Below are positions 5,859 to 63,566 of a DNA stretch of 64,000 nucleotides, in pieces (position 1 is the first letter of the stretch; the number at the start of each line of letters is the position of its first letter). A program made the position numbers and the translations under genes. This DNA is from Patescibacteria group bacterium (lineage in GTDB: Bacteria; Patescibacteriota; Patescibacteriia; UBA9570): assembly GCA_041660305.1 (NCBI GenBank), contig JBAZWO010000001.1, positions 418,268 to 482,267 of the forward strand. Direction: 5' to 3'. The notes beneath the pieces are model-generated. The model searched no databases. It saw only the letters and a program-made list of their open reading frames with translations, and was not told the DNA's origin.

Positions 5859-5940
5859 GCCGATGTGGTGAAATTGGTATACACGCACGGTTCAGAGCCG
5901 TGTGTCGCAAGACTTGTGGGTTCGAGTCCCACCATCGGCA
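5859..5940 (+). tRNA. tRNA-Leu (anticodon CAG)
   Basis: Acceptor GCCGATG/CATCGGC, anticodon stem CACGG/CCGTG with loop TTCAGAG, long variable arm, T-loop GGTTCGAGTCC. Confidence 0.9.
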
Positions 5941-6029
5941 CAAATTAGAACTTTTTCTACCCAAGTATAAAATAATTGACATTTTTTTATAGTTGGGTAG
6001 AAAAAATCCAGATTTTTACTAGCCGCCTT

Positions 6030-6072
6030 TTGCTAACACACCGGGCTAAACCCGGGTGTTAGCAATATTTTA
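6030..6072 (+). terminator. probable terminator of the tRNA-Leu unit
   Basis: Stem TTGCTAACACACCGGG / CCCGGGTGTTAGCAA (one bulged A) with loop CTAAA, followed by TATTTTAT. Confidence 0.5.
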
Positions 6073-6138
6073 TCTGTGTCATCAGCATTTTTTATCCGTG
6101 ACATCTGTGCTTCAAGCATTTTATTATTATTTTTGGTC

Positions 6139-6166
6139 TTGACTTTTCCGTATTTTCCAGTATCCT
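6139..6166 (+). promoter_or_regulatory. putative promoter of the GC-rich unit
   Basis: TTGACT (6139-6144), 16 nt, TATCCT (6161-6166). The -10 is weak. Confidence 0.3.
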
Positions 6167-6195
6167 GGTGCCACCTTACAACCCGTGGAGGTCCT

Positions 6196-6384
6196 ATGAA
6201 AACAAGAGCGGGGCTCTTCTGTTCCACTTGCCGTAAGATTATTTACGGCAAGTGGGCGGAAGCGCCCACTGCAGAAAAAAGGGAAGAGGCGGCCTTCCAG
6301 GCTGCCGATGAAGCAATGAAAAATCACACCAAACGGTGTGGAAAAGTCATTGCTCTTCGGCGGCCTGCACGAGAGGCCGCCTGA
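6196..6384 (+). CDS. candidate 62-aa small protein (CxxC ... HxxxC); may instead be part of a structured RNA
   Basis: GGAGG (6187-6191) lies 4 nt before the ATG at 6196, giving MKTRAGLFCSTCRKIIYGKW...NHTKRCGKVIALRRPAREAA. The ORF is packed with perfect hairpins and is far more GC-rich than neighbouring genes, so coding status is uncertain. Confidence 0.3.
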   Translation: MKTRAGLFCSTCRKIIYGKWAEAPTAEKREEAAFQAADEAMKNHTKRCGKVIALRRPAREAA

Positions 6385-6444
6385 AAAAAACCCGCGGGGA
6401 TTTGGAAAATCCCCGCACAGCGCCTCGAAAGGAGGTGAGGAAAA

Positions 6445-6492
6445 ATGCGGAAGCGGAAGCGGAAGCGGAGGAAATGGGGGTTTCGATATTAG
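6445..6492 (+). CDS. candidate 15-aa micro-ORF MRKRKRKRRKWGFRY
   Basis: Strong SD AAAGGAGGTGAGG lies 5-6 nt upstream of the ATG at 6445. It is too short for the ORF track, and its 3' end is embedded in the 6476-6511 terminator stem. Confidence 0.25.
   Translation: MRKRKRKRRKWGFRY
6447..6470 (+). repeat. hexanucleotide tandem repeat (GCGGAA) x3 plus GCGGAG
   Basis: Read directly from the sequence: gcggaa gcggaa gcggaa gcggag. Confidence 0.9.
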
Positions 6493-6511
6493 TCAAATCG
6501 AGCCCCCTTTT
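6476..6511 (+). terminator. intrinsic terminator of the GC-rich unit
   Basis: GGGGG..TCGAT / ATCGA.CCCCC stem with a 9-nt loop, followed by TTTT. Confidence 0.5.
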
Positions 6512-6519
6512 CAAATTGA

Positions 6520-6569
6520 GAAAATAAATAATAGCTATTCTCCTCCTCTCTCACGAAGTGGAGAGGAGG
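6520..6569 (-). terminator. probable terminator of the 6587-7066 gene
   Basis: CCTCCTCTC (6542-6550) / GAGAGGAGG (6561-6569) stem immediately after the stop, followed on the minus strand by a T-rich stretch. Confidence 0.4.
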
Positions 6570-6586
6570 CCGGGAGGTGAGGTAGG

Positions 6587-7066
6587 CTATTTTTCCACCG
6601 TTAACGTAACCGTATAATCTTCCGGCGCAATAGTTGTGCCGGTTTTTGGCATAGGCGTTACTTCGCCCAAAGTAATAGTATAATTGCCTATAGTGACCGG
6701 GGTAGCACCTTCACCACTACCGCTACCAACAATCGTAACATACTCACTAGACTGTGCCACAGCGATCACTACGCTAACTGTGCCAGCTGTAATACACTGT
6801 GCACCTATTGGACAACGTGAATCGTTACTAATCTGTTTAACCGTTACTGCCACTTCTCCACCTACTAATGCCGTTTGATTAACTTGAACCGTAAACGCCC
6901 CGCCAAAATTCGCTGAAATATCATTGGTAACAACATTCTGATTTACAGTATTTACATTAGCTAGATTAGTAACTGGTTCATTAGAATTGGTATTAGCACA
7001 TCCAACACCAGCTAACATTAAAATAGCTAATGAGGTGGTGCTAATTGTTAAAAAAACATTGCGCAT
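6587..7066 (-). CDS. hypothetical lipoprotein
   Basis: 159 aa. The signal peptide has a lipobox-like LAGVGC, followed by a Thr/Val-rich beta-looking domain with a CPIGAQC pair. Confidence 0.55.
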   Translation of the reverse strand: MRNVFLTISTTSLAILMLAGVGCANTNSNEPVTNLANVNTVNQNVVTNDISANFGGAFTVQVNQTALVGGEVAVTVKQISNDSRCPIGAQCITAGTVSVVIAVAQSSEYVTIVGSGSGEGATPVTIGNYTITLGEVTPMPKTGTTIAPEDYTVTLTVEK

Positions 7067-7204
7067 AAATGTTGGTAATTAATAAATTGATTAAAATTAA
7101 AATAGTTAGTTTTTAAAATTATACCTTAACATTATAACTAGTTAGTTGTTCTTGCACAAACACCTTCCCTTTACATAGCGCTATTTTTTTGATACATTAA
7201 TTAC

Positions 7205-7420
7205 ATGCTTACAGCTGAGGATCTTAAAAACATTAAAACTATTGTTGATAGCGCTAAAAACGACATTGTTGCTTCAGTTGGCGAAGTGATTGAAGAAAAT
7301 GTGTTACCACAAATTTCCTCAATTAACGAAACTATTGAAAAGAACGTCCTACCACAGATTAACTCCTTACCAAATAAGGCTTTCATTACAGATAAAATGG
7401 CAGATTTAGAAACGAAGTAA
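7205..7420 (+). CDS. hypothetical small protein with an internal duplicated motif
   Basis: 71 aa. It contains IEENVLPQISSINET followed by IEKNVLPQINSLPNK, and the repeat is visible at DNA level. No family is recognised. Confidence 0.3.
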   Translation: MLTAEDLKNIKTIVDSAKNDIVASVGEVIEENVLPQISSINETIEKNVLPQINSLPNKAFITDKMADLETK

Positions 7421-31946: not shown

Positions 31947-32151
31947 TATACTACAAAAAAAATTAAATATAAATATTTTTAAACAAAAAAATTGTAATAA
32001 TAATTTTTATAAAAATCATTTTGTGTTTTTTAGAAAAAAAGTTATCCACTGTTGACTAATTTTCCATTGTATAAAAAAATAAAACGATTTATACTTAATG
32101 TAGTCGAATAGAAATAAAAAATTTTTAAAATGAGAGGAGGTGGAAAAACAA

Positions 32152-32262
32152 ATGCCAGCAAAAAAACGAAAGGCAACAAAAAAAGTTGCTAAGAAAAAGA
32201 AAGTAGCAAAACGAAAACCAGTTGCTAAGAAAAAAAAGAAAACTGCCAAACGACGCAAATAA
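32152..32262 (+). CDS. 36-aa lysine-rich microprotein
   Basis: Not in the ORF track. SD GAGAGGAGGTGG lies 8-9 nt before the ATG at 32152, giving MPAKKRKATKKVAKKKKVAKRKPVAKKKKKTAKRRK. It is followed by the 32288-32314 terminator. Confidence 0.5.
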   Translation: MPAKKRKATKKVAKKKKVAKRKPVAKKKKKTAKRRK

Positions 32263-34854: not shown

Positions 34855-35956
34855 AGGCTTGTATCATACGTTCTTCCGAAAATAATTCCAATACCCGTTG
34901 CCGCCCTTGTTTGGCGCGTTCTAATGCCACTGGATAATGCTTATAAACATCTAACAATGCTTCAGCAATGGCCACTGGTTGTTGCGCCGGAACAAGCCAG
35001 CCACAATTACCTACTACTTCTGGTAATCCGCCTACTCGCGTAGCTACTACCGGCTTGGCACAGGCTAAGGCCTCCGCTAAAATAATGCCAAAAGTTTCGC
35101 GTCGAATAGCCGGCAATACTAATACATGACTAAGATATAACCATGGTTTAATATCGGTTTGAAAACCAACGAATGTAATATATTTTTGTAAATTTAATTT
35201 ATTCACTAATTGTTCCAGGCCTGGCTGCCAATAACCTTCGCCCACAACATTTAAATGTATGTTTGGTATTTTTAATATTAATAGTGAAACGGCTTTGATT
35301 AAATCATCAATCCCTTTTTCTGTAGCCAATCTACCAACAAATAATACCTCAAATGATTGCTCTCGCTCTGTTGTTACTGATAAAACCGGCTGTGGTAAAA
35401 ACTGCGTTACATCTACAGAATTGTAAATTACCTTAATTTGTTTAGCCGCTAGGCCTAACTTAATTAATTGTTGTTTTACTGCTTCAACTACTGTAATAAT
35501 CGTAGCGTAACGAGAAAATAATTTATAACCATATTTTAATGGACTAGCTAATAACCAGCGCTCAATTTGTAAATGTTCCAGCCAAATTACTTTTATGCCT
35601 AACCAATATGCCCAAGGTGTTAATAATATTTTCTCGGTTAATGACAAACAAACTAACGTGGTAATTTGATATTGTTTACGATAATATAATAATTTAAAAA
35701 ATAAATTTAGCCAGATAAACGGTGCAGTGAAAAAAAATACTATTAACGCACCAGGCGTAACCGGCTCTGTGCCGGCCCAAGCCGTACGTACAAACCACTG
35801 CCGTTTTTTAAATTCCTTTTTTAATACAGAGCAAGTGGATAATAAATAAAATTGATAACCCTGTTTTTGTAACTGTTCCACTAAGGTTAAGGTGTGTCGT
35901 TCCCCACCACCAAACGTAGACGAATACGGAAATTTTGTAATTAGAATTTTTTTCAT
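34835..35956 (-). CDS. glycosyltransferase family 4 (GT-B)
   Basis: 373 aa with FVGRLATEKGIDDLIKA and the E-x7-E region ETFGIILAEALACAKPVVATRVGGLPEVV. Confidence 0.85.
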   Translation of the reverse strand: MKKILITKFPYSSTFGGGERHTLTLVEQLQKQGYQFYLLSTCSVLKKEFKKRQWFVRTAWAGTEPVTPGALIVFFFTAPFIWLNLFFKLLYYRKQYQITTLVCLSLTEKILLTPWAYWLGIKVIWLEHLQIERWLLASPLKYGYKLFSRYATIITVVEAVKQQLIKLGLAAKQIKVIYNSVDVTQFLPQPVLSVTTEREQSFEVLFVGRLATEKGIDDLIKAVSLLILKIPNIHLNVVGEGYWQPGLEQLVNKLNLQKYITFVGFQTDIKPWLYLSHVLVLPAIRRETFGIILAEALACAKPVVATRVGGLPEVVGNCGWLVPAQQPVAIAEALLDVYKHYPVALERAKQGRQRVLELFSEERMIQAYAQVLV

Positions 35957-49863: not shown

Positions 49864-49985
49864 TTTGTAGTCATATATACGAAATTATATATAAAACTCA
49901 TGTATCGATGGGATGTTGATACGTGAGGTCAATTCTTAATAATCCAAAATAACAATTGATCGTTATCGCAAGATAATCGATCTTT

Positions 49986-51489
<1,504 letters not shown>

Positions 51490-51552
51490 TAAGGAGTACG
51501 GTGTGTTAACAGGCAGACCTCATTGCCTGTGTAACACGTTGGTCGCTGCATT

Positions 51553-51578
51553 TTTCTTGTCACAGTTTGGTTGTTAAA
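51553..51578 (+). other. 3' half of the 16S processing stem
   Basis: TTTCTTGTCACAGTTTGGTTGTTAAA pairs with 49838-49863. Confidence 0.65.
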
Positions 51579-51580
51579 AA

Positions 51581-51609
51581 ATACCGCGCTATTTATGCGC
51601 GGTATTTTG
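51581..51609 (+). terminator. terminator-like hairpin directly after the 16S
   Basis: ATACCGCGC TATTTAT GCGCGGTAT followed by TTTGTT. Confidence 0.45.
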
Positions 51610-51613
51610 TTGC

Positions 51614-51642
51614 TAGACAACCTAGTAAAAATAAGCTATAGT
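51614..51642 (+). promoter_or_regulatory. putative promoter of tRNA-Ile(GAT)/tRNA-Phe
   Basis: TAGACA (51614-51619), 17 nt, TATAGT (51637-51642). Confidence 0.45.
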
Positions 51643-51738
51643 ATTTTTTGCTTTACCTCACCCCTACCCCCTCTCCTCAAAGGAGAGGGGAAAAAATATT
51701 ACACCTAATTTATTAAGGTAAAGCAATTAGCAAAATAT

Positions 51739-51812
51739 GGGCGTGTAGCTCAGGTGGTTAGAGCGCAGTCCTGATAAGACTGAGGTCCCTGGTTCGAGTC
51801 CAGGCATGCCCA
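51739..51812 (+). tRNA. tRNA-Ile (anticodon GAT)
   Basis: Acceptor GGGCGTG/CATGCCC, anticodon stem CAGTC/GACTG with loop CTGATAA, T-loop GGTTCGAGTCC. Confidence 0.9.
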
Positions 51813-51907
51813 CCTTCGCTCGCTTCGCTCACTTCGGTGGGCAGGCCCACTACTCTTTCATGGAGTAGCCGGCTTGCCGGCCGAAGTTCTGCGCTAGCAG
51901 AACGTAG
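51813..51907. repeat. 95-nt GC-rich quasi-palindromic tRNA spacer (two facing twin-hairpin elements)
   Basis: CC TTCG.. CTTCGG TGGGC AGG CCCAC | CTACTC..GAGTAG | GCCGGC TT GCCGGC CGAAG TTCTGC GCTA GCAGAA CGTAG. Confidence 0.7.
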
Positions 51908-51979
<72 letters not shown>

Positions 51980-52005
51980 CAAACAGACCACATTAGTATT
52001 TATGT

Positions 52006-62375: not shown

Positions 62376-63566
62376 TTGCTCTCGCCTAAAAATTCGGCTA
62401 CAGTAAATAGCAATATGACAAAACCAACTTCTTCATCGGAAAAAATAGAACCAGAAAATAAATGTACTTGGCTAACTAAACTAAAACAAGATCGTAAATT
62501 ATTAATCTTAACCATCATTTGTGCCGGATTAGGAATTATTGCGTTAATTGTTGGCGTTATTACAGTAATTAATATTTTAACACAGCCTGCTAATAACGTA
62601 ACCGCTACTATTAATGTGCCACAAAATGTTAATATAGTGCCGCCAGCGCCAACAGTGTTACCACGTGCGTTAGACGGCCTGCTGGTAGCCGCGGCTGATG
62701 CCAATAAAGTACCGGCGTGTGTAATGATTGAAAACGCGGCTTTTGATGGTGTGCGGCCACAAGCCGGTTTATCATCTGCCCAAGTAGTATACGAAATAAT
62801 TGTAGAAGGTGGTATTACCAGGCTAATGGCCGTATTTGGTGGTGAACAAGCTGATACAGTTGGCCCTGTACGTAGCGCTCGTGATACATATTTACAATTT
62901 GCTTCAGAATATAACTGCGCTTACACACATGCTGGTGGCAGCCCTACCGCTATGCAAGCCCTAGAAGATTTTAGTATGCGTGATTTAGATGGCTTGCGCG
63001 AAAGCCAATGGTTTTGGCGCGACTCTAAAAAATATTCGCCGCATAATTTATTTACTAGTACTGCTAAGTTATATGAAGCGATTAGCGCCGGCCATAGCTG
63101 GATAGAAACACCAACATATATTCCCTGGACATTTGCAGATAATGAAGTTATTACTGCCACAGCTACTACTGCTGAAACAGCTAATGAAATAAACGTGTAT
63201 TTTACCGGATCTTACGACGTGAAATATACTTATAATGCCACTGAAAAATATTACGAGCGTGTTAACGGCGGTAAACCACATACCGACGCTAACACTAATA
63301 AAATATTAACTGCCAGAAATATTATTATTGAAACTGTTCCAGCTGGAGAATCTATTGAAGGTAAGGGACGAATTAATTTTGATGTAGTCGGCGCAGGTGA
63401 TGTATATATCTTTCGCTTAGGTAAATTAACCAAAGGTACCTGGAAAAAAGCTGACCGTTTAGCTCGCACACAATTTTTCACGGAAGACGGTAAAGAAATT
63501 CCATTAGTACGCGGTAATACTTGGGTAGAACTAGTGCCAACTACACACAAGTTTGATTGGAAATAA
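62376..63566 (+). CDS. DUF3048 (YerB-like) secreted or membrane-anchored protein
   Basis: A TM anchor is followed by VPACVMIENAAFDGVRPQAGLSSAQVVYEIIVEGGITRLMAVF, the DUF3048 signature. The start may be the ATG at 62415. Confidence 0.75.
   Translation: MLSPKNSATVNSNMTKPTSSSEKIEPENKCTWLTKLKQDRKLLILTIICAGLGIIALIVGVITVINILTQPANNVTATINVPQNVNIVPPAPTVLPRALDGLLVAAADANKVPACVMIENAAFDGVRPQAGLSSAQVVYEIIVEGGITRLMAVFGGEQADTVGPVRSARDTYLQFASEYNCAYTHAGGSPTAMQALEDFSMRDLDGLRESQWFWRDSKKYSPHNLFTSTAKLYEAISAGHSWIETPTYIPWTFADNEVITATATTAETANEINVYFTGSYDVKYTYNATEKYYERVNGGKPHTDANTNKILTARNIIIETVPAGESIEGKGRINFDVVGAGDVYIFRLGKLTKGTWKKADRLARTQFFTEDGKEIPLVRGNTWVELVPTTHKFDWK

Follow-up and report, generated by a model that had tools for sequence, protein, structure and literature searches.

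A putative self-contained transcription unit was identified on the plus strand at positions 6139 to 6511 of a 64-kb stretch of Patescibacteria DNA (hereinafter referred to as the window), downstream of a pair of tRNA-Leu genes. The window originates from a metagenome-assembled genome (MAG) of a groundwater bacterium with a tiny genome, a member of the Candidate Phyla Radiation (CPR), and its overall G+C content was 37.1%. Judging from sequence comparison, the unit represents a putative small RNA locus of approximately 350 nt that possesses a separate promoter and terminator and is restricted to a narrow clade of Patescibacteria. Its predicted conserved core consists of the promoter, a leader of approximately 20 nt, and a Shine-Dalgarno (SD) sequence, which in three of the four genomes compared is extended to an 11- to 13-nt complement of the 16S rRNA tail. 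The explanation that we favor, tentatively and with somewhat less than even confidence, is a clade-specific small regulatory RNA that engages ribosomes and carries a genome-specific expansion of hairpins. Patescibacteria have tiny genomes and reduced ribosomes, and to our knowledge almost no regulatory RNAs have been characterized in this phylum.

An earlier reading of the same DNA, made without database searches (hereinafter referred to as the sequence-only reading), had drawn attention to the GC-rich hairpins of the unit. The second SD sequence, which is the most informative feature of the unit, was passed over there.

Occurrence of the unit in related genomes

Three related loci (L004, L007, and L008) were found to carry a unit in the corresponding position behind the tRNA-Leu(TAG)/tRNA-Leu(CAG) pair, and together with the window they gave four representatives for comparison; the L008 unit is truncated. 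The first tRNA-Leu gene was identical at 82-83 of 83 nt across the window and the relatives. The flanking proteins shared merely 49-58% identity, and the genomes are thus well diverged. The gene following the unit in the window (6587-7066), which encodes a 159-aa protein, is convergent to it, and the next gene was likewise convergent in L004 and L007.

The syntenic relatives were reached solely through homologues of a flanking 276-aa protein. A 44-mer anchor from tRNA-Leu(TAG) gave no match in GTDB representatives, and a 29-mer from the same gene matched one metagenome contig, which was irrelevant. A 28-mer anchor matched 95 loci, mostly from Betaproteobacteria, and none of the approximately 15 Patescibacteria loci among them carried the tRNA pair together with the unit. 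The lineage is rare. A distant homologue of the convergent gene (P0004) was also considered as a relative and was discarded because it was not syntenic.

The L008/L032 contig (CAZZNZ010000024.1), which is labelled 'uncultured Gammaproteobacteria bacterium', was syntenic with the window over FtsX/ABC transporter, FolD, PurA, the tRNA-Leu pair, and the unit, and an error of binning or labelling is probable. A partial duplicate of the 3' half of the tRNA and a GC-richer stretch were observed in the first approximately 600 nt after tRNA-Leu(TAG) of a Patescibacteria MAG that is not related to the window (L064, JAHJGG010000034.1). This arrangement resembles what an element integrated at the tRNA would leave behind.

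Promoter, leaders, and extended Shine-Dalgarno sequence

A sigma-70-type promoter was predicted by consensus scan on the plus strand at 6139-6166 (TTGACT at 6139-6144, a 16-nt spacer, and TATCCT at 6161-6166). The four units had a common pattern, namely TTGAC(A/T), a spacer of 16 or 17 nt, TA(T/G)(C/T)(C/T)T, approximately 20 nt, GGAGGT(G), and ATG, which was found a single time in the window and in each of the loci. Sequence likeness beyond this promoter pattern was confined to a 5' block (with L007), GCGCCnnGAAAGGAGGTGA (with L008), and GAAGCGGAGGA together with the arms of the terminator.

From their likeness to the relatives, two leader copies appear to be present in the window, copy 1 (6167-6195, plus strand) being L007-like and copy 2 (6420-6444, plus strand) L008-like. 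Copy 1 contains SD1 (GGAGGT, 6187-6192), which lies 3 nt before the ATG at 6196 and whose duplex with the 16S rRNA tail was calculated at -10.5 kcal/mol. The block ACCCGTGGAGGTsCTATGAAA was common to copy 1 and L007, with 25 of 28 nt identical. Copy 2 contains the extended SD GAAAGGAGGTGA (6427-6438), a 12-nt perfect complement of the 16S rRNA 3' tail (51478-51489). Between the leader at 6420-6439 (GCGCCnnGAAAGGAGGTGA) and the L008 leader (GCGCCATGAAAGGAGGTGAT), 17 of 20 positions were identical. The L004 version of the extended-SD leader (GGAAGGAGGTGAT) looks like a fusion of the two copies across their common GGAGGT.

Within the window, the 12-nt complement occurred only at 6427-6438 besides the 3' end of the 16S rRNA gene itself. 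All SD energies were calculated as duplexes with the 15-nt 16S rRNA tail, and by this measure the extended SD (-20.6 kcal/mol) was the strongest site in the 64 kb. The perfect complement measured 12 nt in the window, 11 nt in L004, and 13 nt in L008, and the three duplexes had energies of -20.6, -21.3, and -21.7 kcal/mol; the SD of L007 reached -13.0 kcal/mol. A wider set of 829 kb of DNA, covering related and unrelated loci, was used for motif and copy searches. In this set, AAGGAGGTGA was found only in the three units, in the 16S rRNA gene, and at three seemingly incidental sites in proteobacterial loci. The searches for SDs and second copies covered the 64-kb window of the approximately 490-kb genome.

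The 16S rRNA 3' end (...GGATCACCTCCTTTC) retains the canonical anti-SD (ASD) in a clade that is poor in SDs. For the 46 open reading frames (ORFs) of at least 150 aa in the window, the median SD-ASD energy was -2.0 kcal/mol and 2% reached -7 kcal/mol. For 44 called genes from the organism and its relatives (L002, L004, L006-L009), the median was -2.3 kcal/mol and the minimum -8.0 kcal/mol, and the upstream regions were AT-rich. Moreover, 5 of the 15 plus-strand GGAGG pentamers in the 64 kb lie within 390 nt at the unit. In the minimum free energy (MFE) structure of the unit, the 5' leader is paired with both SDs (6174-6179/6435-6440 and 6188-6192/6422-6426).

Mini-ORF, terminator, and boundaries of the unit

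The extended SD is followed after 6 nt by the ATG of a mini-ORF (sORF2; 6445-6492, plus strand), which comprises 15 codons (MRKRKRKRRKWGFRY) and TAG. Counterparts were found in L004 (16 codons) and L008 (15 codons), with the ATG at +5/+6 and with unrelated peptides. All three mini-ORFs terminate in TAG, which is the stop codon of 6 of 40 native genes. Rare codons dominate sORF2 (CGG four times, AGG, AAG three times, and GGG; CGG and AGG are rare Arg codons), and this codon run was absent from the mini-ORFs of L004 and L008. A tandem repeat of (GCGGAA) × 3.8 was detected inside sORF2 by Tandem Repeats Finder (6447-6469, plus strand), and the motif GAAGCGGAGGA was common to this repeat region and L007.

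The intrinsic terminator of the unit extends over 6471-6512 on the plus strand, with a core stem at 6476-6487/6497-6507, a loop at 6488-6496, and a T-run at 6508-6511. Its arms GGGGGTTTCGAT and ATCGAGCCCCC (6476-6507), followed by TTTT (6508-6511), were recognized from fold and sequence, and thus a G+C-rich stem-loop followed by a U-run is present on the transcribed strand. The automatic terminator scan missed 6476-6511 because the loop is 9 nt long. Hairpins of the same type followed by T-runs were also present in L004 (T8) and L007 (T5), and the arms TTCGAT/ATCGA(G/A) were common to the window and L004. The promoter TTGACT-16-TATCCT (6139-6166) and the plus-strand terminator (6476-6511) proposed in the sequence-only reading were therefore both present, and the self-contained transcription unit that it described was borne out by the recurrence of promoter, leader, SD-ATG, and terminator at the same position in the three relatives.

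The mini-ORF and the terminator overlap in the window, where the 5' arm of the terminator is made up of the six final codons of sORF2 and its loop contains the UAG. The mini-ORFs of L004 and L008 end with their UAG at the junction of loop and 3' arm of a strong hairpin, and the terminator of L004 is found 11 nt further. The 38-codon ORF of L007 also stops, with UGA, at the junction of loop and 3' arm of a hairpin.

Hairpins outside the unit mark its boundaries. On the tRNA side, a terminator-like GC hairpin was read from the sequence at 6031-6064 on the plus strand (TGCTAACACACCGGG...CCCGGGTGTTAGCA, then ATATTTTAT), between the tRNA-Leu operon and the unit's own promoter, and an analogous hairpin follows the tRNAs of L007. 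At the 3' boundary (6537-6586) lie the hairpin that terminates the convergent 159-aa gene and another copy of GGAGGTGAGG. The stem of this hairpin (CCTCCTCTC/GAGAGGAGG, 6542-6550/6561-6569) is composed of SD-like and anti-SD-like strings. At 6573-6582, GGAGGTGAGG is an exact 10-nt second copy of 6432-6441, and therefore the 3' untranslated region of the 159-aa mRNA (minus strand) perfectly complements the extended-SD region over 10 nt. The region 6537-6586 was not conserved in the relatives.

Directly after tRNA-Leu(CAG), a near-perfect AT-rich hairpin of 72 nt was observed (5943-6014), which was the origin of spurious matches to miRNA families of Rfam. A different long AT-rich inverted repeat takes its place in L004.

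Base composition and hairpin block

The unit (6139-6511) is the sole GC island in the 64 kb that is neither coding nor tRNA/rRNA. When 150-nt windows were scanned with a cut-off of at least 54% G+C, the others corresponded to tRNA, 16S rRNA, or short pieces within long protein genes; two further candidate islands, 34965-35114 and 62616-62793, were discarded because they consisted of coding sequence only. The G+C content was 52.6% over 6170-6580 and 53.9% over 6167-6515. The sequence-only reading had counted G+C exactly (7 of 60 at 7081-7140, 35 of 60 at 6241-6300, and 37 of 60 at 6361-6420), and its value of 58-62% held for local peaks and not for the island as a whole. Independent assemblies across both flanks of the unit were 100% identical and showed no polymorphism, so that an assembly chimera, which had been raised as a possible cause of the island, was excluded.

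Between the two leader copies lies a GC-rich block of approximately 220 nt of near-perfect hairpins (6198-6416, plus strand). The stems were mapped, all on the plus strand, at 6198-6209/6213-6224, 6224-6236/6243-6255 (13 bp, perfect), 6251-6258/6263-6270 (8 bp, GAAG loop), 6288-6295/6299-6306 (8 bp with one G:U pair), 6312-6319/6347-6354 (enclosing CACACC/GGTGTG, inner stem 6325-6330/6335-6340), 6359-6366/6374-6381 (8 bp), and 6394-6403/6407-6416 (10 bp, perfect). The last of these was not mentioned in the sequence-only reading; the stems described there were all recovered. Since 5 nt are common to the 13-bp stem and the GAAG-loop stem, only one of the two can form at a time. Alternative folds arise also from the 8-mer GGCGGCCT, which, as had been pointed out, is present twice, either copy being able to pair with 6374-6381.

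This density of stems exceeds chance: four distinct perfect Watson-Crick stems of at least 8 bp were observed against 0.055 expected, and none of 2000 dinucleotide shuffles contained four such stems or a 13-bp stem. The MFE of the unit was -170.3 kcal/mol, with z = -10.0 for the plus strand and -7.9 for the minus strand; for the block alone (6196-6420), the values were -12.3 and -9.8, respectively. The plus strand, which also has A-rich linkers and a purine skew, is thus the better RNA strand, as had been suggested from a single G:U pair.

The hairpin block had no counterpart in L004 or L008. The body of the L007 unit was GC-rich but unrelated to the block, and its fold was ordinary (z = -1.1); the units of L004 and the truncated L008 gave z = -3.3 and -5.0. 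The hairpin-dense body, for which the sequence-only reading had considered a structured RNA, is thus not a structured RNA conserved among the relatives. The block appears to be dispensable on this comparison, since two relatives do without it and the third has an unrelated body, so that the conspicuous part of the island is its variable part. An A6G run (A AAA AAG-like) precedes the hairpin 6288-6306 within 6275-6313, and its heptamer is outside the slippery register of the 62-codon frame described below.

Search for known RNA families and mobile elements

With gathering thresholds, Rfam 15, which includes RNase P RNA, tmRNA, SRP RNA, 6S RNA, T-box, and riboswitch families, detected only 16S rRNA and tRNAs in the whole window. 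A permissive scan of 5900-6700 (E ≤ 10, both strands) yielded only sub-threshold hairpin matches, for example to sok (18.5 bits against a threshold of 59) and the ylbH leader (16.7 against 50). The DnaX frameshift element scored 17.8 bits, its threshold being 35 (E = 0.26), and no tmRNA was found by ARAGORN. The failure of the sequence-only reading to place the unit in a known RNA family agrees with the Rfam scan of both strands. A type I toxin-antitoxin system (hok/sok) was rejected, as the ORF products are charged and by inspection have no membrane-spanning stretch, in addition to the low sok score.

No match to the island was obtained from phages or plasmids (blastn) or in a pattern scan of viral contigs. 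Further, no second copy was present in the 64 kb or in the 829 kb, and GGAGGT flanks the block without clear terminal inverted repeats, as regards a miniature inverted-repeat transposable element (MITE) or a repetitive extragenic palindrome. The view of the island as a small integrated or foreign element thus found no support, given the negative searches of phage, plasmid, and viral DNA, the single copy in the 64 kb, and the conserved position of the unit. On present evidence, the unit is best described as neither a known RNA or protein family, nor a conserved structured RNA, nor foreign DNA.

The 62-codon ORF and the bicistronic alternative

ORF1 (6196-6384, plus strand) starts at the conserved ATG after SD1 and comprises 62 codons and TGA, with a CxxC...HxxxC pattern. 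Both SD-led ORFs of the sequence-only reading, that of 62 codons (ATG 6196 to TGA 6384) and that of 15 codons (ATG 6445 to TAG 6492), are present. That ORF1 is a genuine young small protein is the strongest rival to a regulatory RNA. In this case, the unit would be a bicistronic mRNA encoding a 62-aa basic zinc-knuckle protein and a 15-aa cationic peptide, and the hairpins would be incidental or mRNA-stabilizing. We consider this unlikely, with an appreciable residual chance. Both ORFs have an SD and an ATG in an SD-poor genome, the SD1-ATG-AAA block is conserved with L007, and gene callers list ORF1 as a hypothetical protein. In addition, a single-sequence AlphaFold2 model of ORF1 was obtained with a predicted local distance difference test (pLDDT) of 74.2 and a predicted template modeling score (pTM) of 0.54, placing CxxC on a β-hairpin and HxxxC on a helix, whereas the values for a control ORF read in a different frame of this DNA were 48.6 and 0.27.

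Against this stand the searches for homologues. ORF1 matched only itself among 5.8 billion clustered proteins (word-indexed search) and among 1.84 billion protein representatives (exhaustive HMMER), and the protein alternative, when checked in this way, did not yield a conserved protein. No Pfam match was obtained for seven island ORFs (several frames, both strands), no NCBIfam match for ORF1, and no fold match when the ORF1 model was searched against the PDB by Foldseek. No conserved frame was detected on either strand by tblastx among the units of the window and its relatives, and the ORFs at the conserved ATGs, with 62, 38, 16, and 15 codons, were mutually unrelated.

The N-terminus of ORF1 showed a weak zinc-knuckle likeness to bL33 in a PDB sequence search (E = 0.36; eL43, E = 1.9). 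These values were not significant and the relatives have no ORF1, and its assignment as zinc-ribbon bL33 was rejected. A resemblance to bL36 was not borne out either, with no bL36 match in the PDB sequence search, and Ribosomal_S21 was rejected with no Pfam or NCBIfam match.

The composition of ORF1 also argues against a native gene. The G+C contents at codon positions 1, 2, and 3 were 0.56, 0.56, and 0.50, against 0.46, 0.35, and 0.28 in native genes, and the log-odds per codon, at -0.53, fell below the 1st percentile of native 62-codon chunks (-0.10). Thus, ORF1 does not resemble native genes in codon usage, in the G+C gradient over codon positions, or in having homologues. The island contained stop-free runs of at least 54 codons in all six frames, and hence the length of 62 codons is unremarkable. 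Moreover, perfect palindromes of 13, 10, and 8 bp within a coding region are unexpected under protein selection.

A native tiny SD-led gene is available for comparison. Elsewhere in the window, GAGAGGAGGTGG precedes a tiny, extremely basic, K-rich ORF (ATG 32152 to 32262; MPAKKRKATKKVAKKKKVAKRKPVAKKKKKTAKRRK), which is followed by a simple terminator (GATCCCGC...GCGGGATC and a T-run) and had no match in NCBIfam. This gene is AT-rich and unstructured, so that small size and an SD do not explain the GC-rich hairpins of the unit, and it counts against the bicistronic mRNA. In the SD-poor genome, strong SDs seem to be reserved for tiny ORFs.

Other explanations

An improbable alternative is an untranslated structured RNA that binds the 16S rRNA 3' tail, either as a sponge or decoy for the anti-SD of 30S subunits or as a trans-acting small RNA, the ORFs being by-products of composition. 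The very strong structure of the plus strand with its A-rich linkers and purine skew, the concentration of GGAGG pentamers at the unit (5 of 15 within 390 nt), and the lack of conservation of the peptides would fit such an RNA. An SD-ASD duplex of 11-13 bp also exceeds the usual optimum for translation. However, the ATG at the ideal spacing of 5-6 nt and the length of 15-16 codons were kept in three genomes, which is unexpected for mere pairing with the ASD, and the structured body was not conserved.

We assign a lower probability still to a foreign or mobile remnant, or a MITE-like insertion beside the tRNA genes, that would have entered a pre-existing small unit and left a functionless GC block. 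The G+C content and codon usage are foreign to the genome, the position is adjacent to tRNAs, and GGAGGT direct repeats flank the block (6187-6192 and 6431-6436), which is absent from L004 and L008; its near-perfect stems suggest evolutionary youth. Yet, besides the lack of phage, plasmid, or viral similarity and of a second copy in the 64 kb, neither an integrase nor terminal inverted repeats were found, and GC-richness decays in an AT-biased genome unless it is selected. L007 has a GC-rich body at the same place together with the SD1 leader, and the two-part layout thus predates the split of the two genomes.

A stack of terminators or insulators shielding the tRNA operon and the convergent gene from read-through is highly improbable: four hairpins are followed by U-runs on the minus strand and the region lies between convergent transcription units, but the plus strand folds better than the minus strand, the relatives do without the block, the conserved promoter, SD, and ATG are left unexplained, and the convergent gene (6542-6569) and the tRNA operon (6031-6064) have their own terminator hairpins, so that the block is not needed as a terminator.

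Proposed function of the unit

As the relatives keep the docking site and the mini-gene but not the hairpins, the unit is probably a lineage-specific regulatory RNA rather than a known RNA family or a conserved protein. For such a ribosome-engaging RNA, we propose that the extended SD would recruit 30S subunits whose anti-SD tail is free, and that translation of the mini-ORF would then proceed into the terminator's 5' arm. Ribosome occupancy could then decide whether the hairpin forms, and thereby between termination and read-through, or the stability of the RNA. The unit would report specifically on SD-competent ribosomes or act as a sink for them. In the window genome, translation of ORF1 or unfolding of the block may gate access to the extended SD; since the MFE structure pairs the 5' leader with both SDs, the hairpin block and ORF1 translation could have such a gating role.

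In its most specific form, which we consider quite unlikely as it stands, the proposal is that the anti-SD has been kept for one purpose: a stand-alone RNA with a 12- to 13-bp SD-ASD duplex and a throw-away ORF of approximately 15 codons would capture or count ribosomes with a free tail, and would convert this into a transcriptional or RNA-stability decision at the stop-codon hairpin. If true, it would represent a protein-independent analogue of the autoregulation of bS21 (rpsU) in Bacteroidia, with the hairpin block as a tunable gate on SD access, and the first RNA of the CPR to be described as a ribosome-state sensor or sponge. Some lineages of Patescibacteria have no anti-SD, and Parcubacteria-type CPR bacteria often have no bS21 (PMC9297842).

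Several points weigh against a ribosome-engaging regulatory RNA. It is based on four representatives only, one of which (L008) is truncated and another (L007) is without the extended SD and the mini-ORF. The next gene is convergent, so that there is no obvious regulated target: the co-oriented downstream gene of an attenuator is lacking, and read-through would merely be antisense to the 159-aa gene. The position of the stop codons in AT-rich loops of GC-rich hairpins is partly an effect of composition, and the equal lengths of the mini-ORFs may reflect shared ancestry. In addition, the other strong SD in the window (GAGAGGAGGTGG at 32136, within 32120-32156) reached -19.2 kcal/mol, the extreme hairpin block has no specific role in this explanation, and ORF1 may be a real young protein, given its moderately confident predicted fold.

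If confirmed, the regulatory RNA would open translation control in ultrasmall bacteria that have not been cultured to experimental tests. The unit also gives a caution for genome scans: the eye-catching GC hairpins are the variable and probably the lesser part, and the conserved signal is a 12-nt motif.

Other features of the window

A 71-aa ORF (7205-7420) with an internal near-repeat (ENVLPQISSINETIEKNVLPQINSL) was observed beside the convergent gene and was conserved there in contigs of the same organism. Downstream of the 16S rRNA gene lie tRNA-Ile(GAT) and tRNA-Phe(GAA) (49983-52000). No 23S rRNA gene was found in the remaining 12 kb of the window, and the rRNA genes thus look unlinked.

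Comparison with known systems

The unit resembles the regions found in studies of GC-rich intergenic regions (GC-IGR) and by DIMPL (PMC6429828, PMC8632094, PMC11109978) in being a long GC-rich intergenic region with mixed small-ORF and RNA signals in an AT-rich genome. It matches none of the named motifs from those studies that are present in Rfam 15, and by the criteria of the GC-IGR study (PMC6429828) it is a low-ranking candidate by representation.

RNAIII/hld of Staphylococcus and SgrS/SgrT are dual-function, hairpin-rich regulatory RNAs. Like them, the unit has its own promoter and terminator, is several hundred nucleotides long and rich in hairpins, and contains a small SD-led ORF. However, it shows no sequence or structural homology to these RNAs, target-pairing motifs were not identified in it, and its body is not conserved even in close relatives.

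The trpL, pheL, and hisL attenuators are similar in having a short SD-led ORF that runs into the 5' arm of an intrinsic terminator, mutually exclusive stems upstream, and rare codons. The short SD-led ORF overlapping the terminator was found in the window, and the geometry was equivalent in L004 and L008. The unit differs from these attenuators in having no co-oriented downstream gene and no regulatory codon run that is conserved among the relatives.

The closest parallel in possible working is rpsU of Bacteroidia. The ribosomes of Bacteroidia are blind to SDs, and a single extended SD of up to 13 bp and below -13 kcal/mol is found on rpsU, which encodes bS21 and is autoregulatory (PMC9976891); it is through this SD that ribosomes whose anti-SD is free bring about the autoregulation of translation (PMC9976891, PMC7797042). 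As in Bacteroidia, the genes of the window are SD-poor, the anti-SD of 16S rRNA is kept, and one exceptional transcript carries an 11- to 13-nt complement, with -21 kcal/mol in the unit against the -13 kcal/mol that marks rpsU. In Bacteroidia, the anti-SD is occluded by the product of the regulated ORF, bS21 (or bS18). The unit, which belongs to the phylum Patescibacteria, further differs in having a non-conserved mini-ORF of 15-16 codons and neither bS21/bS18 nor another ribosomal protein. Any kinship with the rpsU system may therefore lie in how the two work and not in identity, as the defining bS21 ORF is missing. By analogy with Bacteroidia, SD-anti-SD pairing may have been retained in this clade for regulation, here on an RNA to which no ribosomal protein gene is attached.

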